IMG/VR virus record: IMGVR_UViG_3300045988_066371
Length of the DNA stretch: 17,171 bases
Direction: 5' to 3' (one strand)
From: a virus
The stretch's first letter is position 1, and the number at the start of each line of letters is the position of its first letter. The position numbers were made by a program, and so were the translations under genes. Below the pieces are notes generated by a model. That model made no database searches and was not told the DNA's origin. It worked only from the letters and a program-made list of their open reading frames with translations. This document shows, one piece after another, positions 1,702 to 17,171 of this stretch.

Positions 1702-2139
1702 ATGGCTGACAACGAACTGACCGTAGCAAACGGCAATAATTTTGCGGCTAACGGCGCAAACGCCGTATCCCATTTTTTCAACACTGACACTATGGACGGC
1801 AAAATGGCGCTGTACAACGCCATGCAGACCGCCGATAAGGTGGACGAACATCTCAATGAGCCACTTCATGTGACCAACGTGCTTGCGCAGGCCATCGAGG
1901 TTGCCAACCAAGAGACCGGTGAAATCAACTCATCCACCCGCGTCGTTATCCACAGCGAAGAAGGCGATTTCGCCGCCGCCTCCCCCACGTTGGCGCACGC
2001 TTTTGGCAATCTGTTCGCTATTTTCGGCACGCCGGACACGTGGAATCACCCACTTGCTCTCAAGGTGGTGGAAAAGAAGAGTCGCCGTGGATTCAAGTTC
2101 TTCGATATTGAACTGGTGTCGGAAAAAGACCGTGGATAG
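1702..2139 (+). CDS. Hypothetical early protein (145 aa); possible phage ssDNA-binding protein (positional analogue of phi29 p5)
   Basis: SD AAGGAAGG (1684-1691) precedes ATG1702. It sits immediately upstream of the terminal-protein/PolB pair. The ETGEI...R.VI...G and FG.P...P..LKV pattern reminds me of small phage SSBs of Gram-positive phages. This is not verified. Confidence 0.6.
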   Translation: MADNELTVANGNNFAANGANAVSHFFNTDTMDGKMALYNAMQTADKVDEHLNEPLHVTNVLAQAIEVANQETGEINSSTRVVIHSEEGDFAAASPTLAHAFGNLFAIFGTPDTWNHPLALKVVEKKSRRGFKFFDIELVSEKDRG

Positions 2140-2174: not shown

Positions 2175-2186
2175 TCCCTATAGGGA
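2175..2186. promoter_or_regulatory. Perfect 12-bp palindrome TCCCTATAGGGA (possible operator or 5' hairpin)
   Basis: The sequence is self-complementary and lies in the intergenic region between the putative -10 at 2159-2167 and the terminator-like hairpin. Confidence 0.35.
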
Positions 2187-2201
2187 TGTTGCCGCCAGAC
2201 T

Positions 2202-2244
2202 CACCCCCCGCCGTTTCCATCCTTGCGGCGAGGGGTGTTTTATA
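2202..2244 (+). terminator. Rho-independent terminator-like hairpin ending the left early gene block
   Basis: CACCCCCCGCCG (2202-2213) pairs with CGGCGAGGGGTG (2226-2237): a 12-bp stem with one C-A mismatch. It is followed by TTTTATACT. Confidence 0.6.
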
Positions 2245-2263
2245 CTCACAAGGAGAGAGGGCT

Positions 2264-3208
2264 GTGGCAAAACGTAAAAACAATCGACGTGTTAACAGCC
2301 TGAAACGTAATGCCGCCATCAGGTCGGCGCAGGTACGCCGAGAGCAAGCGGTCAGAGATTACAGTACCGGACACCTCCCCAAGCAAATCACCGAAACGTT
2401 TCTAGGAAAACTCAGCGCCCAACAGCTCGAACAGGTTGCCCGCCGCGTCGGGCAGGAATTCGGGGAACGACAGCAGGCATTAAGGGCTCGGGACAGTGAG
2501 CCGTATCAGGTTGTCCCGGATGTGCATATTACGAAACTCGATAGGGAGTTAGCGGCGCGTCCGCTGATAACCGACGCGGAAATCGCCGCCGCCCCGTCGA
2601 AACGTCGGAAAACATTACGACAGCAACAGCGCCGCCGTATCGAAGCACGGCAGAAAATCAAACGCGCCCAACAATTCGAAGCCTTGAGCATGGCACGCTA
2701 CACAGTGGGCGAAATACGCGAAATGGAACGCGCCGGAGAATCTCCGTTCGACGTGTTGGGCACTCATACGGTTGGCGGTTCGGCGCGTGACGAACTCACT
2801 CGCAACCGGGCGAACGTGTTCGGCTCGGAGCGTGGCATAAGCCACGCACGTATGATGATACGAGAAGGAGGTAGGAGGAAACTTGAACGAGAGATACTCG
2901 AATACGCCGGTCTTATAGGTCGAGCACCATTGCACGCAGGCGCTAGAAAGATTTCTGAGAATGAGGGGGTTTCGGATTTTGATAGAGTCGCGCAACAGCT
3001 CGAAGCATTTGACTCCAATATTGCCCAAAAATTCGCTGCTTTATCGAACCGTCAAAAACGATGGCTGATAAACAACACGAATTTTAGCGCCGTGGTACGG
3101 GAAGCCGCATGGTATAATGATAAAACACATAAATGGGAGACAAAGGCGGACGCGGGCGATGTAGAGACACGACTTGATGAATGGATGGCCAGCGCGGCAC
3201 GACATTAA
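2264..3208 (+). CDS. Candidate terminal protein (314 aa from GTG2264)
   Basis: It lies directly upstream of the protein-primed PolB, as in the phi29 gene 3-gene 2 arrangement. GTG2264 is preceded by AAGGAGAGAGGG (2250-2261). The protein is very R/K-rich (KRKNNRRVNSLKRN; SKRRKTLRQQQRRRIEARQKIKR), consistent with the DNA-binding/nucleoid-targeting N-terminus of terminal proteins. I could confirm no sequence family by eye. Confidence 0.55.
   Translation: MAKRKNNRRVNSLKRNAAIRSAQVRREQAVRDYSTGHLPKQITETFLGKLSAQQLEQVARRVGQEFGERQQALRARDSEPYQVVPDVHITKLDRELAARPLITDAEIAAAPSKRRKTLRQQQRRRIEARQKIKRAQQFEALSMARYTVGEIREMERAGESPFDVLGTHTVGGSARDELTRNRANVFGSERGISHARMMIREGGRRKLEREILEYAGLIGRAPLHAGARKISENEGVSDFDRVAQQLEAFDSNIAQKFAALSNRQKRWLINNTNFSAVVREAAWYNDKTHKWETKADAGDVETRLDEWMASAARH
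3110..3118 (+). promoter_or_regulatory. Consensus extended -10 (TGGTATAAT) inside the 3' end of the terminal-protein gene, about 100 nt upstream of PolB
   Basis: Perfect TGnTATAAT. It belongs to the same 9-mer family as the ITR element (72-80) and 1347-1355. Confidence 0.35.
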
Positions 3209-3220
3209 AGGGATGGAATC

Positions 3221-4681
3221 ATGAAAGAGCGTCGAATGGCGGCAACGGACGGCGCAACACTATTGACGGACGACGGCATGGAACCATTGACAGTGAACGC
3301 CGTCATCCGTCTCACCATGCTCGACTATCATACGCGCGTATGGTGTGCCCACGGATGGCAGGACATCAAGCCCATAGCCGCCGAACTATTGACACGACTC
3401 CCCTTGCAGTCGAACCCAGCCAAGAACGGCGTATGGGGAACATTTAACATCCGTGGCCGCTTTTACAGTTTTCGCGTGCGCATGGGCGGTATCACCGTGG
3501 ATTTTCTGGACGTGCGCAACATCACGCGCGACGATGGTCTGAATGTTTCACGTGGAACATTCGGCGGTGCGGACGATTTGGAAACCACGTGGAATATCGC
3601 ACAGGAATGCGCCGCCCTGAACCTCAGGGGCACTACTATAGCGTCTATGGCAATGACCGACTATATCGGCGGGGATTACGCCGGATTCAAACGCCATTTC
3701 CCGCCGTTGAGCAGGGATGATTATCATCGGATGCGCCCCGCCTACTATGGGGCGATAGTATACAGCAAGCCGGGCGAATACCGGGATTGCCGGAGTTGGG
3801 ATGTGAACAGCCTCTACCCGAGTATCATGCGTGAGGCGCCCATGCCGGTAGGCTCACCCATATGGTACGACGGGAAGTATCAATATGACCCTGATTATCC
3901 GCTCCATATCGATGTTATCGCGTTTGATGCGCGCTTGAAGACGGGGAAAACGGCGACACTCACCAATATCCTACCCGTATGGGGGTATGAGGGTGAACGC
4001 TTGGATAGTACGCTCGGCGTCGTTACTATGCCCGTCACGGATGTGGATTGGGAGACGCTGACCGAAAACTATGATATCCACGTGTGGGAGCATGTCGGTG
4101 GATGGAAGTTTCGCAAATCGCATGGACTTTATTATACGTATGTGGACAAATGGTTTCACGTGAAACAGACCGCGACGGGGGAGCGCAAGCAGATGGCGAA
4201 ACTGTTGTTGAACTCGTTGGTGGGGAAATTCGGGGCCTCGCTGTACCGTCCCATGTTGCATCCGAAACCGTCTATGGACGGTGGTGTGGATTTTACCGTG
4301 GACAAGCCCGAGTCGGCCAACAGTCTAGCGTGGTTGCCGACCGCCGCTTATGTCAACGCCTATGGGAGGCGAATACTGTCACGTGCAATGAACGCGAACA
4401 CCGACCGCGTGCTCTACGCCGACACTGACGGCATGATACTGGAAGGATTGGATACGCCCGCAGGCATAGAAACGGATGACCGGAAACTAGGCGCGTGGAA
4501 AAACGACCATACCTATGAGAGGCTCCGTATTCTCGGCAATCGCAAATATTGCGGCGTGGAAACAGGCGGCGATACCGTCATGCGGTTGAGTGGCGTGCAT
4601 CGTGCCGCCCCCATCCCCTACGATGAGTTCCTGCCGGGGTCACGCCACATCAACGACGATGGACATACTTTTATGCTATAA
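3221..4681 (+). CDS. Protein-primed family-B DNA polymerase, phi29 type (486 aa)
   Basis: SD AAAGGGA (3207-3213) precedes ATG3221. Motif A is DVNSLYPS (nt 3800-), followed by GKYQYDPDYPLHI, very close to phi29 GKYVWDEDYPLHI. Motif B is KLLLNSLVGKFG (4199-), motif C is YADTDG (4415-4432), and an RKY (KxY-like) motif is present. There are insertions in the TPR1/TPR2 positions. Confidence 0.95.
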   Translation: MKERRMAATDGATLLTDDGMEPLTVNAVIRLTMLDYHTRVWCAHGWQDIKPIAAELLTRLPLQSNPAKNGVWGTFNIRGRFYSFRVRMGGITVDFLDVRNITRDDGLNVSRGTFGGADDLETTWNIAQECAALNLRGTTIASMAMTDYIGGDYAGFKRHFPPLSRDDYHRMRPAYYGAIVYSKPGEYRDCRSWDVNSLYPSIMREAPMPVGSPIWYDGKYQYDPDYPLHIDVIAFDARLKTGKTATLTNILPVWGYEGERLDSTLGVVTMPVTDVDWETLTENYDIHVWEHVGGWKFRKSHGLYYTYVDKWFHVKQTATGERKQMAKLLLNSLVGKFGASLYRPMLHPKPSMDGGVDFTVDKPESANSLAWLPTAAYVNAYGRRILSRAMNANTDRVLYADTDGMILEGLDTPAGIETDDRKLGAWKNDHTYERLRILGNRKYCGVETGGDTVMRLSGVHRAAPIPYDEFLPGSRHINDDGHTFML

Positions 4682-4682
4682 T
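4674..4682 (+). promoter_or_regulatory. Consensus extended -10 (TGCTATAAT) overlapping the PolB stop codon
   Basis: Perfect TGnTATAAT; the TAA stop at 4679-4681 lies inside it. The predicted start, about 4688-4690, coincides with the 5' edge of the structured GC-rich region. Confidence 0.45.
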
Positions 4683-4688
4683 GTCCGG

Positions 4689-4856
4689 TAGCGGGGTGTG
4701 CGTCCCAAGTCGATTCGATGGCCCGACCGGTAGGCAATCGGTAAGGCGGTTCGGTCGGATGTAGACGTGCGTAGCCAACGCCCAGCGACGGCGAGGGAAC
4801 CCGCACAGCCTAGCAAACCGGCATGACGGCGTGATTGCCGTCATGCCACTTACTTT
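4689..4856 (+). ncRNA. Candidate structured non-coding RNA (about 165 nt; pRNA-like candidate, or a structured leader of the late operon)
   Basis: This is a 186-nt non-coding gap between PolB and the scaffold gene, and it is GC-rich. Compatible helices: 4694-4706 with 4795-4810 (5'/3'-proximal pairing); 4723-4729 (CCGACCG) with 4752-4758 (CGGTCGG); 4769-4772 with 4778-4781; and a perfect 11-bp hairpin 4820-4830/4837-4847. A consensus extended -10 sits immediately upstream. There is no credible ORF. Confidence 0.4.
4820..4856 (+). terminator. Hairpin GGCATGACGGC-GTGATT-GCCGTCATGCC followed by ACTTACTTT (terminator of the early operon and/or the candidate RNA)
   Basis: Perfect 11-bp stem with a 6-nt loop. 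The downstream tract is only moderately U-rich. Confidence 0.55.
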
Positions 4857-4867
4857 AAGAGGTGATT

Positions 4868-5209
4868 ATGGACGATACCGAAAACACCGAACCGGACACC
4901 ACGCCCGACACTGAGCCGGACGCCAAGCCGACCGACAACAATACGCCGAACCCGGAGCCTGAAACGCAGGACGATGGCGAACCGGAGGACGCGGGTGATG
5001 ATAAAACCGCCGACATGGCCAACCGGTTGAGCGCCTTGGAGGCGACCGTGGCGGAGCTATCTAAAACCATTGAGGCAATGCGCGACGCCGCCGCAGACCA
5101 TGTGTTGAACGATGGTCCGGATGGCGACACGGAGCCGGACGCCACGGAAATGACCGACGATGACTACAACGGCACCTACAGTACGTTTGATGACCTGTTT
5201 GAAGACTGA
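4868..5209 (+). CDS. Probable scaffolding protein (113 aa, highly acidic, central coiled-coil)
   Basis: SD AAGAGG (4857-4862) precedes ATG4868. It lies immediately upstream of the major capsid gene, as phi29 gp7 does. It has a D/E/P/T-rich N-terminus (TEPDTTPDTEPD...), a heptad-like helix (ANRLSALEATVAELSKTIEAMRDAA) and an acidic tail. Confidence 0.6.
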   Translation: MDDTENTEPDTTPDTEPDAKPTDNNTPNPEPETQDDGEPEDAGDDKTADMANRLSALEATVAELSKTIEAMRDAAADHVLNDGPDGDTEPDATEMTDDDYNGTYSTFDDLFED

Positions 5210-5231: not shown

Positions 5232-6962
5232 ATGCCAACCACTCCAGTGGTGACGCCGAAACAGCAGTTGCGACCGCTCACCGAATTCAATAACGCGCAG
5301 ATTCTCAATATGATTCGCAACGAGGCGTCGCCCGAATATCAGAGGCGTATGCCAAGTGCGACTCAGATGAACATGGACCGCCAAATGGCTACGCTCATGT
5401 CCAGCACCCAGCTGAAGAACGAGTTTTACTCGGCTCTGGTGAATCGTATCGGCGGCACCTACGTGAACACGTGGCGTTGGAATAACCCTCTTGGCATTTT
5501 CCAGCGTGCATCTCAGGCGTATGGCGACACGTGGCAGGAAATCGCCGTCGGTATGCCGCTCGCTCAGGTGTACGACCCGGACGCGGAGTACTTGGGCGCG
5601 GATAATTTCCGCAAGTGGAAAATCGACGTGGACAGCCTCTACCACCGTCTTGACTTTGCCCACTTCTACCCTGCGACAACGGATGATAAGACGCTCCAGC
5701 GTGCGTTCACCTCCGAAAATGGTTTGGCCTCGCTCACTTCACAGATTCTCACCTCCTGCTATAACGCGGCCGAGGTGGACTTGTTCGAGGCCATGTGTCA
5801 CCAGTTCGTCGAGTACGCAAAGCTCGGCGGATATTGGCGCGTACACATGGGACATGACCTTAACGACATGGGTTCGACGGAAACCGACGCGCGCGACATG
5901 TTGAGGCAGATTCGCGCATGGGCCGACACGCTGAAATTCGTCTCCACCCGATATAATGCGCGTCACATGCCGACCTTTGCCCGCCCGGATGAGCTTGTGT
6001 TGTTCTGCTCCCCCGAGGTCAAGTCAGCGCTTGATGTTCAGGGTCTGGCCACGGTGTTCCAGCGCACGGATGCGGAGCCGACCATCGACCGGATTATCGT
6101 CATCCCACAGGACAGGTTCGGCATGAATGGCGTGCAAGCCATCCTCACCACTGATAAATTCCTCATTGATATCCCCGTCATCAATGAGATGACCCAGCAG
6201 ACCAACCCGGTGAACATCAATTCAGTCAACCATTACCTGCATGTCCAGCATATCATCTCGGTGTCCGGCTTCGCCCCCGCCGTCATGTTCTGGACGGGCG
6301 CGGGTTCCACTGCTAACGTGGTGACGCCTACCAGTACGGCAGCCAAGACGCCGACCTTCCAGCTCAAACTCACCATGTACGGCGGCGGCGCGGAAACCCC
6401 AACGAACGTAACACGTGGAGGTGCGGTACAGGTCACTGCCGACACGACCATCTCCAACGACGGTACGGCCACATTCCGCTCGAATGCCGTCGAGTACGCC
6501 ATCGGCGACACCGCCAAGCCGAAGAGCAATTACACCTACATTTCGCCTACCGGCGTGCTGGTGGTCGGTTTGGATGAGCCGAACACCGCTATCCCGGTCA
6601 CGGCGACCGCCCTGTACACGAATCCGGCGACGCCTGAAGTGCCGGGCGCCGTGTCCGCAGCTCTGGACGTGCCGGTGGTCGGTGACGGTGTTATCGGATT
6701 CAACCCGTCCATCATTGCATCGATTGCCGTCAACGCCTCGAACGTGACTATGGGTCATACGGCACAGGCGACCGCCACGGCGACCATGATTGACGGGCGA
6801 ACCGCCGACGTGACCGCGCAAGCCGCATGGACGTCCGGCACTCCGGCGAACGCCACCGTATCCGAGTCCGGTGTGGTGACTGGAATCAAGGCGGGCAGCT
6901 CTGATATCACCGCCACGTTGTTCGGCGTGTCCGGTAAAAAGAGCGTGACCGTGACCGCGTGA
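5232..6962 (+). CDS. Major capsid protein, phi29 gp8 family, with C-terminal Ig-like (Big_2) domain(s) (576 aa)
   Basis: SD AGGAAGGA precedes the start. N-terminal matches to recalled phi29 gp8: ILNMIRNE...MPSAT versus IVNAIRNS...VPLAT, and FYSALVNRIG...NNPLGIF versus FITSLVDRIG...NNPLKKF. The C-terminal approximately 80 aa (nt about 6720-6959; VTMGHTAQATATATMIDGRTADVT...WTSGTPANATVSESGVVTGIKAGSSDITATLFG) is a textbook Big_2 fold signature. A second Ig-like segment probably lies upstream of it. Confidence 0.93.
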   Translation: MPTTPVVTPKQQLRPLTEFNNAQILNMIRNEASPEYQRRMPSATQMNMDRQMATLMSSTQLKNEFYSALVNRIGGTYVNTWRWNNPLGIFQRASQAYGDTWQEIAVGMPLAQVYDPDAEYLGADNFRKWKIDVDSLYHRLDFAHFYPATTDDKTLQRAFTSENGLASLTSQILTSCYNAAEVDLFEAMCHQFVEYAKLGGYWRVHMGHDLNDMGSTETDARDMLRQIRAWADTLKFVSTRYNARHMPTFARPDELVLFCSPEVKSALDVQGLATVFQRTDAEPTIDRIIVIPQDRFGMNGVQAILTTDKFLIDIPVINEMTQQTNPVNINSVNHYLHVQHIISVSGFAPAVMFWTGAGSTANVVTPTSTAAKTPTFQLKLTMYGGGAETPTNVTRGGAVQVTADTTISNDGTATFRSNAVEYAIGDTAKPKSNYTYISPTGVLVVGLDEPNTAIPVTATALYTNPATPEVPGAVSAALDVPVVGDGVIGFNPSIIASIAVNASNVTMGHTAQATATATMIDGRTADVTAQAAWTSGTPANATVSESGVVTGIKAGSSDITATLFGVSGKKSVTVTA

Positions 6963-6968
6963 TATGAT

Positions 6969-6996
6969 GAGAGGGTAGCCGGTTGGCTACTCTCTC
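6969..6996 (+). promoter_or_regulatory. Stem-loop GAGAGGGTAGCC-GGTT-GGCTACTCTCTC just after the capsid gene
   Basis: 12-bp stem with one G-U pair and a 4-nt loop. It lies upstream of the stronger terminator hairpin. Confidence 0.4.
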
Positions 6997-7018
6997 TCAT
7001 GGTGTGATGCAGGACAAG

Positions 7019-7059
7019 GCCCGGAGCGTAACCCACGTGAGCGCTCCGGGCTTTGTTAT
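7019..7059 (+). terminator. Rho-independent terminator after the scaffold-capsid pair
   Basis: GCCCGGAGCG (7019-7028) pairs perfectly with CGCTCCGGGC (7042-7051) and is followed by TTTGTTATAT. Confidence 0.75.
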
Positions 7060-7071
7060 ATCGGAGGTTGG

Positions 7072-9405
7072 ATGATGATTGACGATGTGAATACCTACGT
7101 GGAAGCTAATTTTTCTTGGGCGGAATGGACGCCCAACACTACGCTGAAACTCTGCCGCGTCCCGTGGGATGCATCCTACCGGGATGTCGTGCGGTTTGTT
7201 TCACGTGAAACACAGGAACAATGGTTCGATAAGTTGGATGGCGTGGAATGCCGACCGGCCACCATGCATATTTTCAACGCGCCTGCCCGCGTCGAACTTC
7301 CGTTTAATGAGGCGTCGAACTGGAATTATCTGGTGGCCTATAATGATTACCCCGGTTTGGAGGGGCCGCGCGCTTGGTATTACTTCATTCAGCGTGTCGA
7401 ATACGTCAATGCCCATTGCACGCAACTGGTTTTGATGTTGGACGTATGGCAGAGTTTCCAGCATGATGTCACGTTTGGCAGTTGTTATGTGACGCGCGGC
7501 CATATCGGTGTGGCCAATGAACGCCAGTGGGATGGTTATGGGAGAACCTATCTGGCACTTCCAGAGGGTTTGGATACCGGCAGTGAGATGGTAACGACGG
7601 CACAGCGGTATCATTCCATCATATCCGGAGAGCATCGGGATACTGTCGATGGGAAGGGGTTGGATTGGGTTGATTATGGCGTTATCATTGTGAGCACCAC
7701 GGATTTGACCAAGGCGCCCGGCAGTGAGTCGAAACCCGATTTGCGCACGGCGACGGGCAGTATATTCGAGGGTGCGACGGACGGATGCAATGTCTACTAT
7801 TGCAACTCTCGAATAAGTTACGTGTGGAACATCATGGCGGCTGGCACATCATACCCGTGGGTCACTCAGGGCATTTGCGCCGTGTACATGGTGCCGAAAA
7901 TCCCACAGGATTACATCAATCGCTACGGTCAGGAGGTAACACAAATCTTCGGCCAGTCGGTTGACGCGCAACATGGACGAGTCTATGGTTTCCAAAGCGG
8001 CGTGGACTCGGACATGCGTTACGAGGATATCATGACGGTAGACAATTTCAGGAATCTTTTTAACATCCCGCAACGATACCGCAATCTCCGTAAACTCCGC
8101 TGTTACCCCTATTGCGTCGTGGAATGCAGTTGCCTCAACGGAACGACCGTCAACTATAGGCCGGAGGATATCCAGTCCGATAACCTTACCATTCGAGAAA
8201 CGTACACATATGCCCCGTCCGGTACACGAATCAATTTCTACGCCCCCGGATACAATGAGGCCGGAGCGGACACGCTGCATCCAATCCAAATCAACAACCG
8301 AGGTTACGGTCTGCCTATCGACGGTGGGGAAATGCTCAATGCAAGCTTCGGTATCACCAACCTCCCTCATTTCAGCGTTGTCAACAATGGCGGCGCACTG
8401 GCTATGGCAAACAGTGCGTACACTCGCGCCTACGCTCAGGAATCCGCGCAGTGGACGCGACAAAAAGCATTGGCGTCGGCGGATGTCGCCAATTCAAACG
8501 CAATGTGGCAACGCGAATACGCCGCACAGCAAACCAATTGGGCCAATGAGAATCGCACCGCGAACAATGCAATCACGGCCAACTCGCTGAACCAGTCCCT
8601 TGCCATCAGTCAAGACCGAACCAGCCAGATGGCCGGATTGCAGGTGCAGCAGAACATCAGCAACAATAATCTCAACGGCATGGCCGGGGCCATCGGCGGC
8701 AGTCTGAACGCCATTGCCTCTCGTAACCCGATGGGAGTGGTGAACGCTGTCGGCGGCGCGTTCCTCGGCACCGCGCAGATGGACATAGCCAACCACGGCA
8801 TTAATTCCTCGGCGGCAATCTCAAACTCCACCGCCGCATCCAGTACGGCGAATCAGATAGCCACCAATACGGCGGCCACCTCGCAGGCAAACGCCTACGC
8901 GAGCGGAGCAACCGGATTGGGTAACCAGCTCAATGCCATCACCTCACAAGCCAATTATGGGCTGGCCGCCTACGCCGCCCAAGGAGACTATCAGAACGCT
9001 ATCGCGGGAATCAACGCGCAGGTACAGCAAATGCAGTTGACGCCGCCGACCGTCTCGGGCGCGCTTGGTGGAGACATGTTTAATCTGAGCAATGGTATCA
9101 TGGGTGTGTTGGTCAGGTTTAAGACGTGCGCCCCCAGTGCTCTGAGGGCCGCAGGCGAGTACATGCTAAGGTATGGGTATTTTGTTCAGCGCTTCATCAC
9201 CCCGCCCGCCTCGTTGGAATGTATGGAGAAATTCACGTTTTGGCAGATGCAGGAAGCGTATGTGAGAGGCACGTTGCCGGAGGAATACCGTTTGACCATC
9301 AAGGGCATGTTCGAGCGGGGCGTGACCGTATGGAGCAAGCCGGAGTATATTGGGGTGACGGACTGGGCGGACAATGAGCCGCTTTCGGACATTGGTTACG
9401 AGTGA
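7072..9405 (+). CDS. Tail knob / distal tube protein, phi29 gp9 family, with a large central Q/N/A/G-rich insertion (777 aa)
   Basis: SD GGAGG (7063-7067) precedes the start. The N-terminal pattern L.LCRVPWDASYRDVVRF.S...Q.QWF ... WYYFIQRVEYVN...DVWQSF matches recalled phi29 gp9 (ILADVPFSNDYKNTRWF.S..NQYNWF ... WFYAFVTELEFKN...DVLQTW). It occupies the gp9 position, just upstream of the portal gene as in phi29. Confidence 0.85.
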   Translation: MMIDDVNTYVEANFSWAEWTPNTTLKLCRVPWDASYRDVVRFVSRETQEQWFDKLDGVECRPATMHIFNAPARVELPFNEASNWNYLVAYNDYPGLEGPRAWYYFIQRVEYVNAHCTQLVLMLDVWQSFQHDVTFGSCYVTRGHIGVANERQWDGYGRTYLALPEGLDTGSEMVTTAQRYHSIISGEHRDTVDGKGLDWVDYGVIIVSTTDLTKAPGSESKPDLRTATGSIFEGATDGCNVYYCNSRISYVWNIMAAGTSYPWVTQGICAVYMVPKIPQDYINRYGQEVTQIFGQSVDAQHGRVYGFQSGVDSDMRYEDIMTVDNFRNLFNIPQRYRNLRKLRCYPYCVVECSCLNGTTVNYRPEDIQSDNLTIRETYTYAPSGTRINFYAPGYNEAGADTLHPIQINNRGYGLPIDGGEMLNASFGITNLPHFSVVNNGGALAMANSAYTRAYAQESAQWTRQKALASADVANSNAMWQREYAAQQTNWANENRTANNAITANSLNQSLAISQDRTSQMAGLQVQQNISNNNLNGMAGAIGGSLNAIASRNPMGVVNAVGGAFLGTAQMDIANHGINSSAAISNSTAASSTANQIATNTAATSQANAYASGATGLGNQLNAITSQANYGLAAYAAQGDYQNAIAGINAQVQQMQLTPPTVSGALGGDMFNLSNGIMGVLVRFKTCAPSALRAAGEYMLRYGYFVQRFITPPASLECMEKFTFWQMQEAYVRGTLPEEYRLTIKGMFERGVTVWSKPEYIGVTDWADNEPLSDIGYE

Positions 9406-9417: not shown

Positions 9418-10368
9418 ATGAGTAGGTCTAAAAAGAATCGAGTTGGCGGCGCGTTGCATCCGCGTGGCAACTACGCGAAAACACGCGCGGCCACACTTGA
9501 TGACATGTATCTTCATTTGCTGATGGAACTGGCGTTAAACCGTTTCAGTTGGCGAGGATTACCGCCCACCGTGGACGAACGTTGGCTGGAAATATGTCTG
9601 TGCGAATACGGTTGCGCGTTGTTTTTCGAGGATAAACGTATAGGCCGGTTCCTCGTAACACAGGCCGGATATCAAGGCAGATTGAACGTGTACAATAATC
9701 CAACATGCTTCGAGCCGGTAGGTGTCAACTACCATTATCGGCAGCTCAAAGCGGGGGCGGAATGCATTCCGATTTGGGATAATCGAATGCGCGTCGGATT
9801 CAAGCCGACGTTATGGCAGTACGCGCGACGCCTTGCCGATATCGACAAGGCGTATGATATGAATCTGGAAAGCCTGAAACTACCGACCATTATCACCGCC
9901 GACCCCCGCACGAAACTCACCGTGCAAAACATGCTTCAGCAACGGCAGGACGGGCAGGATTATATCATCGGATACGACTCTCTCGACCCCGGTAGCATGT
10001 TTCAGCCGTGGCCCAACACAACACCCTACCTTTTAGACAAGTTCGTCCAGCAAAAAACGCAGGTGACTAATGAGGTGTTGGGATACCTCGGTATCCAGTC
10101 ATCCGGCACCGAAAAAAAAGAACGGCTTATCTCCGACGAAGTGGCACAAGCCAACGAGAAGGTAGACGTGTTTCGATTGAGTTTCCTCAAGGCGCGGCAG
10201 GCTGCGGCAACCGAGATTAACCGATTGTGGCCGCAGCTTAACGTCTGGGTAGAGTACGCGGACGCGCAAAGCTCCGGCGTACCCAACGCGCTGGACTCCA
10301 GCGCAAGCGGTACGACGGATATTGACATGCCCGCCTCGTATGATGCGGGTATCGGGGGTGTGTTGTAA
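9418..10368 (+). CDS. Portal (connector / upper collar) protein, phi29 gp10 family (316 aa)
   Basis: Matches to recalled phi29 gp10: NRFSWRGLPPT versus QLFEWENLPPT; VYNNPT versus VYNQAT; GTEKKERLISDEVAQANEKVD versus [21 protein letters not shown]. The basic N-terminus (MSRSKKNR...) resembles the pRNA-binding N-terminus of gp10. Confidence 0.93.
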   Translation: MSRSKKNRVGGALHPRGNYAKTRAATLDDMYLHLLMELALNRFSWRGLPPTVDERWLEICLCEYGCALFFEDKRIGRFLVTQAGYQGRLNVYNNPTCFEPVGVNYHYRQLKAGAECIPIWDNRMRVGFKPTLWQYARRLADIDKAYDMNLESLKLPTIITADPRTKLTVQNMLQQRQDGQDYIIGYDSLDPGSMFQPWPNTTPYLLDKFVQQKTQVTNEVLGYLGIQSSGTEKKERLISDEVAQANEKVDVFRLSFLKARQAAATEINRLWPQLNVWVEYADAQSSGVPNALDSSASGTTDIDMPASYDAGIGGVL

Positions 10369-10601
10369 TGATGACTTGTGACACTATGGTAAGACTTGTA
10401 TCTGAAATGTATGAAATCGCCAATAAAATCAGTAAGGCGCAAAAAGCTCTGGATAGCTATGAAAACGGGGGCTTGTCCATGTCCGACCAATCTGCGGAGC
10501 TACTGAAAAAACAGGTTATTGCAATGAAAGCATATCATGATATCGTCGCCGAACGTATTAACCACCAAACAGGGGAGGCCATGTATGGTACAGAGTTTTA
10601 G
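10368..10601 (+). CDS. Small helical hypothetical protein (77 aa) between portal and lower collar
   Basis: ATG10368 overlaps the portal TAA by 1 nt (TAATG), and the 3' end overlaps the next gene by 17 nt. The composition predicts a helical protein. I know of no phi29 counterpart at this position. Confidence 0.5.
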   Translation: MMTCDTMVRLVSEMYEIANKISKAQKALDSYENGGLSMSDQSAELLKKQVIAMKAYHDIVAERINHQTGEAMYGTEF

Positions 10602-12105: not shown

Positions 12106-13089
12106 ATGTCCAGTATTAACAAAACCCCGCACTATAATCTCAGCCAGTTCGGAGACAGCCCGGACGATAAACCGTCATGGCGCGGCGACTACACCGGCGA
12201 CATGAGCAAAATCGATTCGCAGATGTACCGCAACGAAACCGACGCCACCACCGCAACGTCTACCGCCAACACGGCCAAGACCACAGCGGACAGTGCGCTC
12301 TCATTGGCGCAAGCCAATAAAGCGGATATCACCGAACAGGAATCGTATTTTAATGCGCTTGGCGTCACGTCCGCGCAGACCGCGCAAGCACTCATGTCTA
12401 CCATCAACGGCAAGGCGGAAAATACGGCGCTCACCTCACTGCAAGGCACGGTGTCCTCGTTGTCCGATACCGTCAACGGCAAGGCGAACACCGCTGAGGT
12501 GTACACCAAAGCGCAGGCGGATGCACGATATACTCAGCAGGGCGGGTATTCGGGCACCGCACAGGCGCTTAATCAGCGCATCGATACCAACACATCCAAT
12601 ATCACTGCGATGCAGTCATGGCAAGATGCATGGCACGATTGGACTTCGTTAGGTGATTTCAATTACACTGTAACCCCCTCTCAAATTGCGGTACTGCCCA
12701 ACATCTCCAACATCCAATGCTATTACAATGAGACGCTGGGGATGATTAAGGTTTTCGGCAGCTTTGGGTGCGAGGGTAGTTCGCAGAGTGCGCCTAATTT
12801 TAACTCCATCACCATCAAGAGCTCACAACCGCTCCCCGCAGGAATGCGGCCAAGCTCGCAAATTAACATGATTGCAACTATGTGGTGGTTCATGAACGGG
12901 TCGGGATATAATCTTTATTCCTACGACCAGCTTCTATCAAGTCGTGCCGCCGTCATCGTCGATACCAGCGGATATGTGCATATAGGTGAAATGACCTCCT
13001 CGGGCACGTACACAACGAGCGTGGGCACGCATGCAAGGCAGGGTGCTCGAATAGTGTTGCCGCAAAGCATTTACACACTCACTCAATGA
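12106..13089 (+). CDS. Tail fibre / receptor-binding appendage protein (327 aa)
   Basis: Strong SD AAGGAGG (12092-12098). The N-terminal YNLSQFGD....W.GD...DM.KID motif and the TKAQADARY motif are common in Gram-positive phage fibres. There is an A/T/S-rich coiled stalk followed by a globular C-terminal domain. Confidence 0.7.
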   Translation: MSSINKTPHYNLSQFGDSPDDKPSWRGDYTGDMSKIDSQMYRNETDATTATSTANTAKTTADSALSLAQANKADITEQESYFNALGVTSAQTAQALMSTINGKAENTALTSLQGTVSSLSDTVNGKANTAEVYTKAQADARYTQQGGYSGTAQALNQRIDTNTSNITAMQSWQDAWHDWTSLGDFNYTVTPSQIAVLPNISNIQCYYNETLGMIKVFGSFGCEGSSQSAPNFNSITIKSSQPLPAGMRPSSQINMIATMWWFMNGSGYNLYSYDQLLSSRAAVIVDTSGYVHIGEMTSSGTYTTSVGTHARQGARIVLPQSIYTLTQ

Positions 13090-13101
13090 AACAACTAACC
13101 C

Positions 13102-13139
13102 ATGCCCCACGGTCATTGCCGTGGGGCATACTTTATTAT
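13102..13139 (+). terminator. Rho-independent terminator after the fibre gene
   Basis: ATGCCCCACGG (13102-13112) pairs perfectly with CCGTGGGGCAT (13119-13129) and is followed by ACTTTATTAT. Confidence 0.75.
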
Positions 13140-13161: not shown

Positions 13162-14376
13162 ATGGTAGACGTACAGGCATGGTTGGAACGTACCCAAAAC
13201 CAATACTGGGATATGGACGGTAGGTATGGCGCACAGTGCTGGGACCTGTGGGCGAAATATTGTATGGATAATTACAATCTGTCGTTAGGCGACTGTATCA
13301 CCCCAACAGGATACGCGGGGGGTAATTACACCATGTTCCCCACCACGGCGGCGGTTGGACGTGTTTTTGAGAAAAAAGACGTCAACTATACGCCCGGCAT
13401 GGGGGATGTCGTGTTTTGGAGGTTCGGCAGTCAAAACTACCCCGGCAGTCACGTAGCCATCGTCTGGGGTGGCGTCCAAGGCGACAGTATCGACGTGTTG
13501 ACACAAAACCCGACGCCCGCCGTGCATCAAACCCTACCGCTCGCGAGGGGGTCACAACTTCTCGGTTATCTGCATCCCACGGCATTGCCGGAGCCGCCGG
13601 AATCCGGCGATAATCCGACAGGAGGAAATAATCCGGGCGTGAACGTGGATGGCAATATCTCCGCGTGGATACAATTGCAGGGCGATAATCTCGTATATCA
13701 CAGTGGTTCGGGCACGGCATCATCGCAAGCCATTTTCTATAAAGCAAGCGCCCAGACGTGGATATATCGCGGCGGCACAGGTCAGCCGGACGCCGACCAC
13801 GGTCAGGGTACGCCAAGCGTAGGCGATGGAAAAAGCTCATACGCATTCTATGTCATCGGTACCGTTGAATCATCATTGCGTTGGGATGCGGTTGAACCTA
13901 ACAATCAGGGTATCGGTATCGCACAATGGAGTTTTGGGCGCCGTTTGCAGGTGTTGAATGCGATGAGGGCGGTGGATGCTGCGGGGTATGAGGCGTTTGC
14001 CGCCGCCGCGCCGGGTGTCGCCGCGCTCATGGAATCAGGCGGCACGTTCGATAGGGCGATGACCGGTAGCGAAGTCACGGCATTCCAGACGTGGGCGCGG
14101 CGTGCGGAATCACGGCAGGGGCAGCGAAACCAGTTTGCCGAGGATTACGAGAGCTACCCGCAGATGTATGATGATGTGAAAATGCAAATACTGTGGGTGA
14201 GCGCTTATCATCAAAGCCCGGCGGGCGCGTTGAATGTGCCTCATGCTTCATCTCTTACCCAACTGTATAATAATATCCTCAATACGTCCCCGTTCGGGCC
14301 ATATGGGACACGCTATAATACCGTCTATTCGCTGCTGAACGTGTGGGATGGCACCAGCGCACCACCGAACTTTTAG
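13162..14376 (+). CDS. Tail-associated peptidoglycan hydrolase: N-terminal CHAP domain plus C-terminal gp13-type tail lysozyme domain (404 aa)
   Basis: CHAP signature: GAQCWDL (catalytic Cys) and YPGSHVAIV (His). The linker is P/G/N-rich. In the C-terminus, GTVESSLRWDAV...GIGIAQWS and ILWVSAYHQSP match recalled phi29 gp13 N-terminal lysozyme-like motifs (GNMQSESTINPGLW...GFGLVQWT; IFLASYERP). The gene occupies the gp13 position. Confidence 0.85.
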   Translation: MVDVQAWLERTQNQYWDMDGRYGAQCWDLWAKYCMDNYNLSLGDCITPTGYAGGNYTMFPTTAAVGRVFEKKDVNYTPGMGDVVFWRFGSQNYPGSHVAIVWGGVQGDSIDVLTQNPTPAVHQTLPLARGSQLLGYLHPTALPEPPESGDNPTGGNNPGVNVDGNISAWIQLQGDNLVYHSGSGTASSQAIFYKASAQTWIYRGGTGQPDADHGQGTPSVGDGKSSYAFYVIGTVESSLRWDAVEPNNQGIGIAQWSFGRRLQVLNAMRAVDAAGYEAFAAAAPGVAALMESGGTFDRAMTGSEVTAFQTWARRAESRQGQRNQFAEDYESYPQMYDDVKMQILWVSAYHQSPAGALNVPHASSLTQLYNNILNTSPFGPYGTRYNTVYSLLNVWDGTSAPPNF

Positions 14377-14382
14377 CACAAC

Positions 14383-14412
14383 GACAGACCGGCAGATATC
14401 TACCGGTCTGTC
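14383..14412. promoter_or_regulatory. 30-bp near-perfect palindrome GACAGACCGG-C-AGATATCT-A-CCGGTCTGTC (terminator-like hairpin or operator)
   Basis: The 10-bp perfect arms are 14383-14392 and 14403-14412. The centre AGATATCT is itself palindromic. It is flanked by CAAC...GTTG. The downstream tract TGTTGTAT is only weakly U-rich. Confidence 0.5.
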
Positions 14413-14428
14413 ACTGTTGTATGGTAAG

Positions 14429-15535
14429 ATGGATATTATGGAGAGATTGTTAGCGGAGGGTGATTATTACGATTATGGGCGCGTATTATCCTATCACGCG
14501 CCTTGGATGTTCGTAATCGGCGCTCGCGGCCTCGGCAAAACCTATGGTGCTAAAAAACTGGTCATCGGGGACTGGATTAGAAAACGCTGGCAGTTCATCT
14601 ATTTGCGTAGGACGGCGGAGGAGCAGAAAAACAAGGGCACGTGGTTTGCGGACATTGCGGAACAGTATCCGGAATTGGAGTTTCGCGTGTCCGGGAATCA
14701 GGCGGAATGTCATTGGCTGGATGACAGGGACGCCACCACGGACAAGCACGGCAAGACGCGCCCCACGTGGCATATCATGGGGTACTTTATCGCCCTCAGT
14801 CAGGCAGGGCAGGTTAAATCAGTCGCGTATCCCAAGGTACGAACCATTGTTTTTGATGAGATATTCCCCGATAATATGCGGTATTTGGGCGGTGAAGTAA
14901 CCGCGCTTGAGGAGTTTTATAATACGGTTGACCGTTGGAATGATAGGACTCGCGTTATCATGTGCAGTAATGCCGTGACCCTCGCCAACCCGTATTTTTC
15001 GGCATTTAACATCAATCTGAAACCACAGTTGGATAATCATACGCAATACCAGCGCTATTGCGATGGCTTTATTATGGTGGAACTGGCCGATTATGGCGGG
15101 TTCAGCGCCAAGGTGGCCACATCCAAATTCGGAACGTTCCTACGCAGGTATGATGAAAATTATGCGAATTATGCAATCAATAATGATTTCAGGGATAACG
15201 CCAATACTCTCATTAGTGATTTTAATAACGCCGGTTATGCGTTCACATTAAGGACCACCGAATACGGTATTTTCAACGTGTATCAGCAATTAAGCGACAC
15301 TGACGAAGTGTTATATATAATCACAAAAAAACAGCCGAAAATCACCCGTAATTTTACGTTCGATTACCGACTAGTCGATAATGATTGCATGATGCTCAAA
15401 CGTTCCGACGATATGACGCAGAAAATACTGAACGCCTATCGCGTCGGACGAGTACGGTTTGAAACACCTCAGATTAAAGCTGAGTTCAGTATGATTCTTG
15501 GCGGCTTGTTGCAACAGTCAGGCATAAGAAAGTGA
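14429..15535 (+). CDS. DNA encapsidation (packaging) ATPase, phi29 gp16 family (368 aa from ATG14429; ATG14438 is an alternative)
   Basis: Matches to recalled phi29 gp16: Walker A VIGARGLGKTYG versus VIGARGIGKSYA; QFIYLRR versus QFIYVRR; Walker B TIVFDEIF versus TIVFDEFI; CSNAVTLANPYFSAFNI versus LSNAVSVVNPYFLFFNL. The ORF is open from 14348, but that stretch spans the palindrome and has no SD. Confidence 0.93.
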   Translation: MDIMERLLAEGDYYDYGRVLSYHAPWMFVIGARGLGKTYGAKKLVIGDWIRKRWQFIYLRRTAEEQKNKGTWFADIAEQYPELEFRVSGNQAECHWLDDRDATTDKHGKTRPTWHIMGYFIALSQAGQVKSVAYPKVRTIVFDEIFPDNMRYLGGEVTALEEFYNTVDRWNDRTRVIMCSNAVTLANPYFSAFNINLKPQLDNHTQYQRYCDGFIMVELADYGGFSAKVATSKFGTFLRRYDENYANYAINNDFRDNANTLISDFNNAGYAFTLRTTEYGIFNVYQQLSDTDEVLYIITKKQPKITRNFTFDYRLVDNDCMMLKRSDDMTQKILNAYRVGRVRFETPQIKAEFSMILGGLLQQSGIRK

Positions 15536-15908: not shown

Positions 15909-16802
15909 ATGGATAATATTATATGGGTAGGCTCCCCAAACCACTACAATGGGCGAGGCGGATACCACGTAACACACATCACCCTACACATCATGGTAGG
16001 CTATCTAACCAGCGCAGACAACTTTTTCCAGTCCCCCCAAAGCATGGCATCAGCCCACTACGGGGTAGGCGGGAACGGAGCCATTCACCAATACGTGGAC
16101 GAAAATAACGGCTCATGGTCTGACGCCAACTACGCGAGCAACAACAGCACCATCAGCATCGAACACGAAGGCGGAACGGCTGGAATCCCTTGCACGCAAG
16201 CATGTATAGATGCATCTGCCGCACTATGCGCCGACATTGCCCAACGATACGGATGGAACCACCTATGGCACGACGGGCTCAACGGTAACGTCTGGCTACA
16301 CCGCGAAGTCCCCGGGACCAACCACGCCGGGTGCCCCGACCTCGCAACGAACGGCCTCCCATACCAACAGGTCATAGACAGAGCTAACGCCATACTTAAC
16401 AGCAAAAACAGCAAAAACAACGAAAGGAATACTCCAATGGCAGAACTACTTATAGTTGATGACAGCGATAACGGTACCGTATGGTACTGGAACAACCTTA
16501 TTGGACGCCATAAACTCGGCAACACTGACCAGATGCACATCTACGAAGCGGCTGGCGTAAAAACAATTCATTCATCGAACGCCGCAAACTGGATAGCAGT
16601 ATGCGATACACAGGACATTCACGGAAGCGAGGCAGGCACTGGAATCCTCAATGATATTAAAATAACCTCAACCGCACAGTCAGCCGCAATCAAAGCACTA
16701 TCGGAATCAATGGGCGCAGACCCCGACACCATAGCAAAAATCGTACAAAACGCCGTCAAAACCAAACTGGACAGTCTCAAAATTACAGTGACAGACAAGT
16801 AG
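15909..16802 (+). CDS. Endolysin: N-acetylmuramoyl-L-alanine amidase (Amidase_2/PGRP fold) plus an uncharacterised C-terminal wall-binding domain (297 aa)
   Basis: Signatures are HITLHIMVG...SAHYGVGGNGAIHQYVDENNGSW...NNSTISIEHEG and HREVPGTNHAGCPD (Zn ligands). An N/S/K-rich linker is followed by a domain of about 120 aa with no family I recognise. Confidence 0.9.
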   Translation: MDNIIWVGSPNHYNGRGGYHVTHITLHIMVGYLTSADNFFQSPQSMASAHYGVGGNGAIHQYVDENNGSWSDANYASNNSTISIEHEGGTAGIPCTQACIDASAALCADIAQRYGWNHLWHDGLNGNVWLHREVPGTNHAGCPDLATNGLPYQQVIDRANAILNSKNSKNNERNTPMAELLIVDDSDNGTVWYWNNLIGRHKLGNTDQMHIYEAAGVKTIHSSNAANWIAVCDTQDIHGSEAGTGILNDIKITSTAQSAAIKALSESMGADPDTIAKIVQNAVKTKLDSLKITVTDK

Positions 16803-16812
16803 TGACGGCAAT

Positions 16813-16839
16813 ATAAGCCCCGCATATCGCGGGGCTTAT
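16813..16839. terminator. Bidirectional terminator hairpin between the endolysin and the inward-facing right ITR gene
   Basis: ATAAGCCCCGC (16813-16823) pairs perfectly with GCGGGGCTTAT (16829-16839). It is T-rich downstream on the plus strand (TTCATT) and on the minus strand (ATATTGCC). Confidence 0.75.
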
Positions 16840-16864
16840 TCATTACGAGACAGTCACGCGTTGC

Positions 16865-17050
16865 TCACTCGGCTACACGATTCATAAAAACCACAGTCTC
16901 AAAACAATAACGATAAAACTCAACACCCTTACGCTCATACATAACAACAAGACAATCCACAACGGCATCAACATCATAATCCACAACACGCTCGCCACTG
17001 TTGCGAATATAATCAATAACCTCATTCTTAATGTCTTGACGATACATCAT
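16865..17050 (-). CDS. ITR-encoded small hypothetical protein, right copy (identical to 122..307)
   Basis: Exact inverted duplicate of the left copy. It is the only minus-strand gene called and is convergent with the endolysin. Confidence 0.6.
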   Translation of the reverse strand: MMYRQDIKNEVIDYIRNSGERVVDYDVDAVVDCLVVMYERKGVEFYRYCFETVVFMNRVAE

Positions 17051-17091
17051 CTCAACCACCATCCTTTCCGTATTCCTTGGTTGATAGTTAT

Positions 17092-17100
17092 ATAATACCA
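17092..17100 (-). promoter_or_regulatory. Right-ITR copy of the TGGTATTAT extended -10, reading inward
   Basis: Mirror image of 72-80. Confidence 0.45.
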
Positions 17101-17171
17101 CACCACAAAAACACGACACGCCGAACAACACAAAAACAGAGAAAAAACTACGCGCTTAAATTATAGACAAA

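Follow-up and report, generated by a model that had tools for sequence, protein, structure and literature searches.

A candidate packaging RNA gene between the polymerase and scaffold genes of a phi29-like phage genome

We analyzed a virus genome of 17,171 nucleotides (nt), IMG/VR record IMGVR_UViG_3300045988_066371 (the window, by which we mean this whole stretch), and found that the gap between its genes for a protein-primed DNA polymerase (PolB) and a small scaffold-like protein probably harbors, at positions 4690 to 4856, the gene for the packaging RNA (prohead RNA, pRNA) of the phage. The original prediction had described the gap as a pRNA-like unit, and this reading, which gained much strength once relatives were compared, is now supported by the topology of the RNA, by covariation in other clades, by complementary loops that may kiss, by the protein partners encoded in the genome, and by a clade around the cultured Bifidobacterium phage BD811P, in which the RNA is an independent unit. 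The elements of the gap are the following.

4674 to 4682, plus strand: extended -10 promoter element, TGCTATAAT, overlapping the PolB stop codon (TAA, 4679 to 4681), with no -35 element
4683 to 4690, plus strand: variable spacer, in which every column varies (majority-base frequency of 0.763, as at neutral sites)
4691 to 4721 with 4782 to 4814, plus strand: closing (A-like) helix of 24 base pairs (bp) in six blocks, 99 to 100% paired
4722, plus strand: 1-nt junction that links the closing helix to the C-like helix, in the three-way junction
4723 to 4729 (CCGACCG) with 4752 to 4758 (CGGUCGG), plus strand: C-like helix of 7 bp, 99.6% paired
4730 to 4735, plus strand: CE-like bulge GUAGGC, 6 nt, on the 5' side only, with no unpaired base opposite
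4736 to 4751, plus strand: E-like stem-loop, AAUCG (4736 to 4740) pairing with CGGUU (4747 to 4751) in a 5-bp stem, loop GUAAGG
4759 to 4768, plus strand: single-stranded C/D junction of 10 nt, AUGUAGACGU, highly conserved (counterpart in clade C, introduced below: AUGUAAAAU)
4769 to 4781, plus strand: D-like hairpin, GCGU and ACGC forming a 4-bp stem around the 5-nt loop AGCCA
4815 to 4819, plus strand: variable linker AAACC, with indels and with variation in 80% of columns
4820 to 4847, plus strand: 3' hairpin, domain-II-like and terminator-like, 12-bp stem with 11 Watson-Crick pairs and one G·U pair, 4-nt loop
4848 to 4856, plus strand: tail ACUUACUUU, a weak U tract
4857 to 4870, plus strand: ribosome-binding site AAGAGG and start codon (ATG, 4868) of the scaffold-like gene

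The gap (4682 to 4867) had been described as 186 nt long and devoid of a credible open reading frame (ORF), and both points were confirmed, the start codon of the scaffold gene lying at 4868 and not at 4869. The TGnTATAAT element reported across the PolB stop codon is present, the CCGACCG/CGGUCGG helix and the small hairpin at 4769 to 4781 are both in the sequence, and so is the closing helix, which extends beyond the segments initially proposed (4694 to 4706 with 4795 to 4810). The 3' hairpin contains the 11 Watson-Crick pairs noted before and is followed by the expected tail, with the G·U pair and the 4-nt loop as additions.

We then compared the window with 78 distinct IMG/VR relatives (window clade), which share 91 to 95% identity in the capsid protein and 82 to 95% nucleotide identity in the gap. 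The extended -10 element (TGnTATAAT, or TATGAT) was kept in 79 of the 79 sequences, the window included. Domain I of the RNA (4691 to 4814, 124 nt) has a majority-base frequency of 0.962, compared to 0.963 at codon position 2 of PolB and to 0.77 to 0.78 at codon position 3, which drifts freely. Purifying selection on domain I is thus as strong as at second codon positions.

A consensus fold was obtained with RNAalifold from the window-clade alignment, and its pair cells were counted against partners slid by 1 to 3 columns and against 500 shuffles. The helices seen in the window were kept across the 78 relatives, with standard pairs in 99.1% of the pair cells versus 27 to 43% for the slid partners. 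Nine pairs changed on both sides, and none of the 500 shuffles reached the observed values. In the closing helix, whose 5' blocks are GCGGG, UGUGCG, UCC, GUCG, UCG, and UGG, the pair 4717/4786 was exchanged from G-C to A-U in 12 sequences. The closing pair of the D-like hairpin (4772/4778) appeared as U-A, U-G, or C-G, with both sides changed in 16 sequences, and changes in the C-like helix were limited to G-C to G-U and A-U to G-U. Most of the compensatory changes of the alignment fell in the 3' hairpin (five pairs, in 35, 31, and 27 sequences among others). Overall, 291 cells contained G·U and 28 contained A·C, a bias which shows that the structure belongs to the plus-strand transcript and not to the DNA or to the opposite strand. 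The plus strand has a minimum free energy (MFE) of -83.5 kcal/mol (z = -3.55 versus shuffled sequence; z = -2.16 for the minus strand), and the consensus fold lies only 2.9 kcal/mol above it. An outer CCGG/CCGG pairing from the single-sequence MFE structure (4685 to 4688 with 4816 to 4819) was discarded, as its 5' side varies freely (AACTAACA and others) without matching change.

These data bear on the idea that the gap has no RNA function and is a chance GC-rich fold, a DNA-level element, or a small protein gene on the minus strand. GC-rich sequence folds readily, and minus-strand ORFs of 46 to 62 codons do cross the gap. Those ORFs are ruled out by 1- and 2-nt indels located in loops of the relatives, which would shift any frame, and the idea is further contradicted by purifying selection at the level of nonsynonymous sites, by compensatory and G·U-specific changes that indicate the plus strand, and by other clades that keep the fold with unrelated sequences. 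We regard it as extremely improbable.

We next compared the window RNA to the pRNA of phi29, which we folded from the genome record, and used the curated structure of Rfam entry RF00044 for the comparison. In the phi29 pRNA, a bulged closing helix (22 bp) leads through a single junction nucleotide into the 9-bp C helix, after which 9 nt bulge out on the 5' side alone before the E stem (4 bp, 6-nt loop UUGAGU). The sequence UUU connects this arm to the D stem, which has 6 bp and a 5-nt loop and returns to the closing helix through a 0-nt junction. The full-length fold of 174 nt adds a linker and a domain II hairpin with UUUU. The predicted topology of the window RNA matches those of the phi29, B103, and GA-1 pRNAs element by element, and the sizes match too. 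Domain I has 124 nt (117 to 120 nt in phi29), and both RNAs have their 5' and 3' ends paired in a bulged helix of ~22 to 24 bp. The one-sided bulge has 6 nt, as in GA-1 (9 nt in phi29), the E-like stem-loop has 5 bp and a 6-nt loop (4 bp and 6 nt in phi29 and in GA-1, where the loop is GUAAAA), and the D loop has 5 nt in both the window and phi29. The D-like hairpin joins the closing helix without any unpaired nucleotide, so that the three junction strands measure 1, 10, and 0 nt in the window versus 1, 3, and 0 nt in phi29. The C-like helix (7 bp) and the D-like stem (4 bp) are 2 to 3 bp shorter than their phi29 counterparts, and the window RNA is GC-rich, unlike the pRNAs of the phi29 family, which comprises those of the Bacillus phages phi29, B103, M2/Nf, SF5, and GA-1. 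Transcripts of the pRNA family finish with a 3' hairpin (domain II), a place that the 4820 to 4847 hairpin would take in the window RNA.

The same topology was found in three further clades with unrelated sequence, for which the consensus folds show a three-way junction: BD811P-like phages, a sister clade that we call clade C, and a group of phages like the Arthrobacter phage Mendel. The BD811P clade comprises BD811P2, BP1, MT836241, and 80 IMG/VR contigs, which provide 69 distinct RNAs with a mutual identity of 71 to 90%. Here, TGCTATAAT overlaps the end of PolB and the closing helix starts 8 nt further on. Inside it, a C-like helix of 9 to 10 bp is followed by a bulge of 7 nt, again confined to the 5' side, by a 4-bp stem capped with a 7-nt loop, and by a D-like stem of 7 bp with a 5-nt loop; this D-like stem is 100% paired and covaries at 5 of its 7 pairs. 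With a manually built structure, 95.9% of the cells were paired across the 69 RNAs (35 to 48% in slid controls), and 18 pairs changed on both sides compared to 11.8±1.7 in shuffles. A G101-C105 pair, which would close a 3-nt D loop, was rejected, since it was less consistent than the bulge/loop pair described below and was broken in 2 sequences.

Clade C (8 contigs) has a different sequence, and its MFE and consensus folds share the layout, with a 6-nt bulge, an E stem of 4 bp, and the 6-nt loop GUAAGG. The Mendel group (10 diverse sequences) also displays this layout (6-nt bulge, E stem of 4 bp, 6-nt loop UUGAAU), with a strongly covarying closing helix and compensatory changes at 16 of the 33 predicted pairs. 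The loop UUGAAU is invariant in this group and is one base off the phi29 E loop UUGAGU. The Mendel-group RNA starts at the stop codon (..CGTGA..) of a small ribbon-helix-helix gene. A GCGUGAU motif common to the loop of the window 3' hairpin and to the 5' end of the Mendel-group RNA was set aside as a probably coincidental resemblance, because in the Mendel group it mostly corresponds to the last codon and TGA stop of the upstream gene.

In two other phages, Rhizobium phage RHph_N3_8 (z = -4.8) and Actinomyces phage Av-1 (z = -3.9), the scaffold gene is likewise immediately preceded by a structured stretch with a strong hairpin. The Bifidobacterium phage BadAztec shares the promoter, the closing helix, and the hairpin, with compensatory changes in the closing helix and the hairpin only (two near-identical sequences). 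A P2 motif, UCGAxUGG...CCxxCGA, seems common to the clades by eye only. Sequence-level homology could not be shown from one clade to another, so that the case for relatedness of these RNAs among themselves and with the phi29 pRNA is made from topology and synteny and not from sequence.

We then examined the loops for complementarity. All the resolved clades show it between the one-sided bulge and the small hairpin, the hairpin loop matching the 3' end of the bulge, beside the apical stem. In the window, GGC (4733 to 4735) faces GCC (4774 to 4776), and these three G-C pairs are kept in 77 of 78 relatives while the flanking bases vary. When run lengths were compared to those of random loops of the same length, UGGCA/UGCCA in clade C (5 bp) gave P = 0.003 to 0.015 and RCCA/UGGY in the BD811P clade (4 bp) gave P = 0.03; the Mendel group has GCU/AGC, extended to AGCU/AGCU in Mendel and Anjali (P = 0.013 for Mendel itself). 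The first of these pairs in the BD811P clade is G-C in 58 RNAs, G-U in 7, A-U in 4, and unpaired in none. The A occurs only where the partner is U, for which a hypergeometric test ignoring phylogeny gives P = 4e-4, with ~three independent lineages. In phi29, the kissing pairs AACC/GGUU are formed by the 3' end of the bulge and by positions 2 to 5 of the D loop, a register identical to that of the BD811P clade. The core is of 3 G-C pairs in the window and of 4 pairs in phi29, within the 2 to 5 kissing pairs reported for natural pRNAs (PMC4201828), and the window-type RNAs resemble the pRNA family in that the kissing sequence differs between lineages while its complementarity is kept.

The bulge/loop complementarity could also be an intramolecular pseudoknot that stabilizes a compact shape, in a structured small RNA that acts in trans with another function, as a regulator of host or phage genes, a decoy, or a scaffold for a different protein. 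A discrete transcription unit is plausible for such an RNA. Both the C and the D arm emerge from one junction and differ in length in step between clades (7 and 4 bp in the window, 9 to 10 and 7 bp in the BD811P clade), from which it follows that loop-loop pairing could form in cis; in addition, the apex of the 3' hairpin, GUGAUU, is conserved across clades for no known reason. With this explanation, the match to pRNA topology and the restriction to phi29-like genomes with a gp16-type ATPase and a gp10-type connector would be a coincidence, no target complementarity was identified, and no Rfam family matched. We therefore consider another trans-acting function unlikely.

We interpret the GUGAUU apex as a UGAU loop closed by a G·U pair. 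It is identical in the window clade (4829 to 4838) and in the BD811P clade (~4872 to 4882 in the representative locus L081), while the stems are wholly different and covarying; clade C has AUUAUU at this apex and BadAztec has GAAA. No conserved complement of the GUGAUU loop was found in domain I or at the ribosome-binding site of the scaffold gene, and the apex may be a protein-binding site. Another 12-bp hairpin of the window (13102 to 13129, after the gene at 12106 to 13089) has an apex near-identical to that of the 3' hairpin of the RNA (ACGG-TCATTGCCGT versus ACGGCGTGATTGCCGT), shares its ACTT..TT tail, and was scored terminator-like on both strands.

With regard to transcription, the window combines two features of a candidate discrete transcript, a consensus extended -10 element and a covarying hairpin, the U tract being weak. 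The same -10 element is found at the 3' end of PolB in the BD811P clade, in clade C, and in BadAztec, and its distance to the closing helix is 8 nt in the window as well as in clade C and the BD811P clade. From the spacing, transcription would start at about A4690/G4691, 8 to 9 nt after the -10 element, and the small RNA probably has its 3' end in the region of 4848 to 4856. There is no promoter between the 4820 to 4847 hairpin and the scaffold ribosome-binding site of the window, and the late genes must therefore be expressed by read-through. Consequently, the description of the window unit as self-contained does not fully hold, and a leader role may apply in addition.

The BD811P clade differs on this point. 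Its hairpin is followed by a proper U tract (GUUUUAUUU) and then by a second extended -10 element (TGATATAAT) before the scaffold gene. This second element (CATGATATAAT; 4905 to 4916 in locus L081) is invariant across the BD811P clade and absent from the window clade and clade C, so the BD811P clade differs from the latter two in late-gene transcription. Lying between its own promoter and a canonical terminator that precedes a second promoter, the BD811P RNA cannot be just a leader. The layout is that of the pRNA gene of GA-1, where promoter A1b overlaps the end of an ORF and is followed by the pRNA, terminator TA3, promoter A1c, and further ORFs.

This comparison is central to the main competing explanation, a cis-acting leader of the late operon without any packaging role, in which promoter, structured RNA, and terminator would set or time late transcription by regulated read-through, either by attenuation or by antitermination, as with lambda PR'-6S RNA-tR' or with a put-like RNA that modifies RNA polymerase. 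All the late genes lie downstream on the same strand, a structured region with a strong hairpin directly precedes the scaffold gene in clade C, BadAztec, Mendel, RHph_N3_8, and Av-1, and, in several soil relatives, that hairpin has the form of a canonical terminator, A/U-tract stem included. Moreover, GACGGC occurs both in domain I (4788 to 4793) and in the 5' arm of the hairpin (4826 to 4831), so that an alternative pairing is conceivable in the window. The lambda PR'-6S RNA-tR' and HK022 put systems resemble the window in that a short transcript runs from a strong promoter to a terminator immediately ahead of the late genes, which hence need read-through. However, those leaders act in cis on RNA polymerase and have no three-way junction, closing 5'/3' helix, or loop-loop complementarity, and in the BD811P clade, unlike in lambda and HK022, the RNA is uncoupled from the late promoter: there, the late genes do not depend on it (canonical terminator, separate extended -10), yet it is equally conserved and covarying. 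Terminator arms change in relatives without matching upstream changes, no equivalent of the GACGGC type was seen by eye in the BD811P clade, and no antiterminator pairing common to the clades was seen by eye, no systematic search having been made. A leader would also leave unexplained the one-sided bulge, the fixed sizes of helices and loops, and a bulge/loop complementarity whose sequence changes from clade to clade. No known leader, antiterminator, or riboswitch family matched in Rfam, and no Q-like domain was found among the ORFs scanned, the small early ORFs not having been analyzed in depth. We consider a leader without a packaging role unlikely, and packaging and leader roles may coexist.

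Several observations weigh against assigning the gap to a pRNA gene. First, the lack of a promoter after the hairpin is common to the window, clade C, BadAztec, Mendel, and Av-1, which makes the element also a late-operon leader, unlike the pRNA of the phi29 family. Second, the gene sits inside the genome, flanked by PolB and the scaffold gene and sharing its strand with all the other genes, whereas that of phi29 lies at the genome's left end, distal in the left early operon; the synteny with phi29 that had been put forward therefore holds for the location after the replication genes but is not identical. On the other hand, location after the replication genes with a promoter overlapping the end of the preceding ORF is shared with GA-1, and the position of the pRNA gene is not fixed within the family, as shown by GA-1 (PMC6266182). 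Third, the complementarity between bulge and loop in the window clade is of only 3 bp, invariant, and not significant on its own (P = 0.15 to 0.26), so the argument is carried by its recurrence across clades with different sequences; besides, the pairing could take place within one molecule. Fourth, forcing BadAztec into the C/bulge/E arrangement costs 14.5 kcal/mol over its MFE, and the RNA of the Mendel group has no recognizable promoter of its own and may be cut from a longer transcript.

Finally, model searches did not connect the families. A covariance model of the BD811P clade, run with default filters, had no match in the window, BadAztec, Mendel, Reje, or RHph, and with the filters off it returned terminator-like hairpins only. 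The scan with the Rfam pRNA model envisaged by the original prediction was negative: RF00044 had no match at E<=10 on the whole window or on positions 4670 to 4870 (201 nt). The control searches showed that this test is weak, since phi29 scored 145 bits, B103 scored 50 bits (gathering score of 100), and the GA-1 pRNA was itself not found at E<=10. The lack of a match is therefore uninformative for the window RNA, and RF00044 is essentially a phi29/PZA model, implying that pRNAs are under-annotated by standard pipelines. Likewise, published covariance models could not reliably find the pRNA of Cp-1 (PMC6266182).

The putative pRNA of the Streptococcus phage Cp-1 and the "packaging RNA" annotated in Av-1 express the same idea as ours, a pRNA in phi29-like phages outside Bacillus. 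We evaluated the Av-1 annotation as a guide to location and rejected it. The GenBank feature (misc_RNA, 16295 to 16402) is unstructured (MFE of -14.6, z = +0.53), overlaps minus-strand ORFs at the genome's right end, is not syntenic with the window RNA, and has no counterpart in the window. The stretch that is syntenic with the window RNA is at 4465 to 4620 of Av-1, before ORF8, where the structured region reported above ends in a 14-bp hairpin and U5. The packaging ATPases of the window and Av-1 are only 36.7% identical, and the sole megablast match of the window (5%) was to a record other than Av-1.

We also looked at the genome as a whole. The window has perfect inverted terminal repeats of 311 bp (1 to 311 and 16861 to 17171), far longer than the 6-bp repeat of phi29, and is thus a complete linear protein-primed genome of the phi29 type. 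All its genes are on the plus strand except one inside the right repeat; holin and amidase genes are encoded in addition to the following.

1702 to 2139, plus strand: phi29-type SSB
2186 to 3208, plus strand: terminal protein (probable)
3221 to 4681, plus strand: protein-primed PolB (PF03175)
4868 (ATG) to 5209, plus strand: small scaffold-like gene, reading frame confirmed by its codon-position pattern
5232 to 6962, plus strand: phi29-type major capsid protein
7072 to 9405, plus strand: tail knob gp9
9418 to 10368, plus strand: phi29-type connector gp10 (PF05352, 1.1e-41), N terminus MSRSKKNRVGG
14348 to 15535, plus strand: gp16-type packaging ATPase (PF05894, 1.3e-41)

Apart from the gap that precedes the scaffold gene, this complete genome has no non-coding stretch above ~110 nt, which leaves no alternative site for a pRNA gene. 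The nearest cultured phages are the Bifidobacterium phages BadAztec, BD811P, and BP1 (37 to 42% capsid identity), followed by Arthrobacter and Curtobacterium phages, and by similarity to these phages the hosts would be Actinobacteria (Bifidobacterium-like).

As in the phi29 family, the genome encodes an ATPase of the gp16 type together with a connector of the gp10 type, whose N terminus, as originally noted and as evident from the translation, is basic. The ATPase is a homolog of phi29 gp16 over its full length and matches it (PDB 7jqq) at 8.7e-31 over residues 6 to 318 of 332, the C-terminal domain included. In phi29, the ATPase reaches the prohead only via pRNA, which binds the basic N termini of the connector (PMC4201828, PMC11476376, PMC8104870). 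By analogy, the connector (9418 to 10368) is the expected docking partner of the window RNA, and the gp16-type ATPase is the expected partner of its closing helix.

We propose that the host RNA polymerase would start at the extended -10 element, ~8 nt upstream of the closing helix, and that some transcripts would stop at or after the 4820 to 4847 hairpin, yielding an RNA of ~165 nt, while the others would read through into the scaffold and capsid genes. As conservation and covariation show, the 124-nt domain I pairs its 5' and 3' ends in a long, interrupted helix with a three-way junction on top. The GGC of the bulge could then pair with the GCC of the hairpin loop of a neighboring molecule to build a ring of several copies, as the 5 to 6 copies of the pRNA family do; the complementarity is present in the sequence, and its intermolecular use is suggested by phi29. 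By comparison with the phi29 motor, the ring would be seated at the prohead's portal vertex, on the basic N termini of the connector, and the protruding closing helices would dock the gp16-type ATPase, which has no portal-binding module of its own. The 3' hairpin would be a dispensable domain II that doubles as a terminator.

Other features of the genome were noted. A protein of 77 amino acids (10368 to 10601), encoded between the connector gene and the genes of the lower-collar region, matches a crAss001_48-related family (PF21825, 4.7e-11). The intergenic region between the capsid and tail knob genes (6963 to 7071) contains hairpins at ~6972 to 6999 and ~7020 to 7053, the second followed by TTTGTTAT, which probably form an attenuating terminator after the highly expressed capsid gene. 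A GC-rich hairpin (GCCCCGC..GCGGGGC, 16809 to 16845) between the amidase gene and the minus-strand ORF of the right repeat resembles a bidirectional terminator and was the top (spurious) match of both the BD811P-clade covariance model and Rfam asX2. The palindrome GTTTCACGTGAAAC occurs three times (3545 to 3558, 4153 to 4166, and 7198 to 7211; chance expectation of 0.1), always inside genes, twice in PolB and once in the tail knob gene; in one relative it sits in a hairpin directly after the TGATATAAT promoter. It may be a site for an operator or a regulator.

The motor of which pRNA is an essential part ranks among the strongest molecular motors, and RNA nanotechnology makes wide use of this RNA, which is, to our knowledge, the only natural one that forms a functional ring of identical molecules. 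A 2024 review called it unique to phi29 and related Bacillus phages (PMC11476376). Many other phi29-like phages share the gp16 ATPase and the gp10 connector and may likewise need an RNA. In the literature consulted, we found no report of a pRNA for actinobacterial or gut phi29-like phages, the only earlier claim found being the Av-1 GenBank annotation. Here, a covarying GC-rich RNA with the architecture of pRNA is seen in hundreds of phage genomes from gut and soil, including those of the cultured phages BD811P, BP1, and Mendel, in which the requirement for the RNA is hence directly testable. Compared to the known pRNAs, the window RNA would be new in its sequence family, its genomic position, its hosts, and its possible fusion to a late leader, with the same architecture and presumed role.

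In practical terms, the region just upstream of the scaffold gene is the place to look in other phi29-like genomes, and the current Rfam model is too narrow for pRNA annotation. The RNAs would also provide new three-way-junction and kissing-loop scaffolds, of very different sequence and probably higher stability. Going beyond the window, it is possible, and we put it forward tentatively, that its RNA belongs to a large unrecognized pRNA family of actinobacterial phi29-like phages (gut Bifidobacterium-type, honeybee, and soil Arthrobacter/Curtobacterium phages) and perhaps of Rhizobium phages, with an ancestral motor and a fusion to the leader. If this is true, an RNA-dependent packaging motor would be ancestral to the whole phi29-like lineage and not special to Bacillus phages. 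Most such phages would have their pRNA gene fused to the leader of the late operon, and a single promoter would there supply motor RNA as well as structural mRNA, the proportion depending on how much transcription passes the domain II hairpin.

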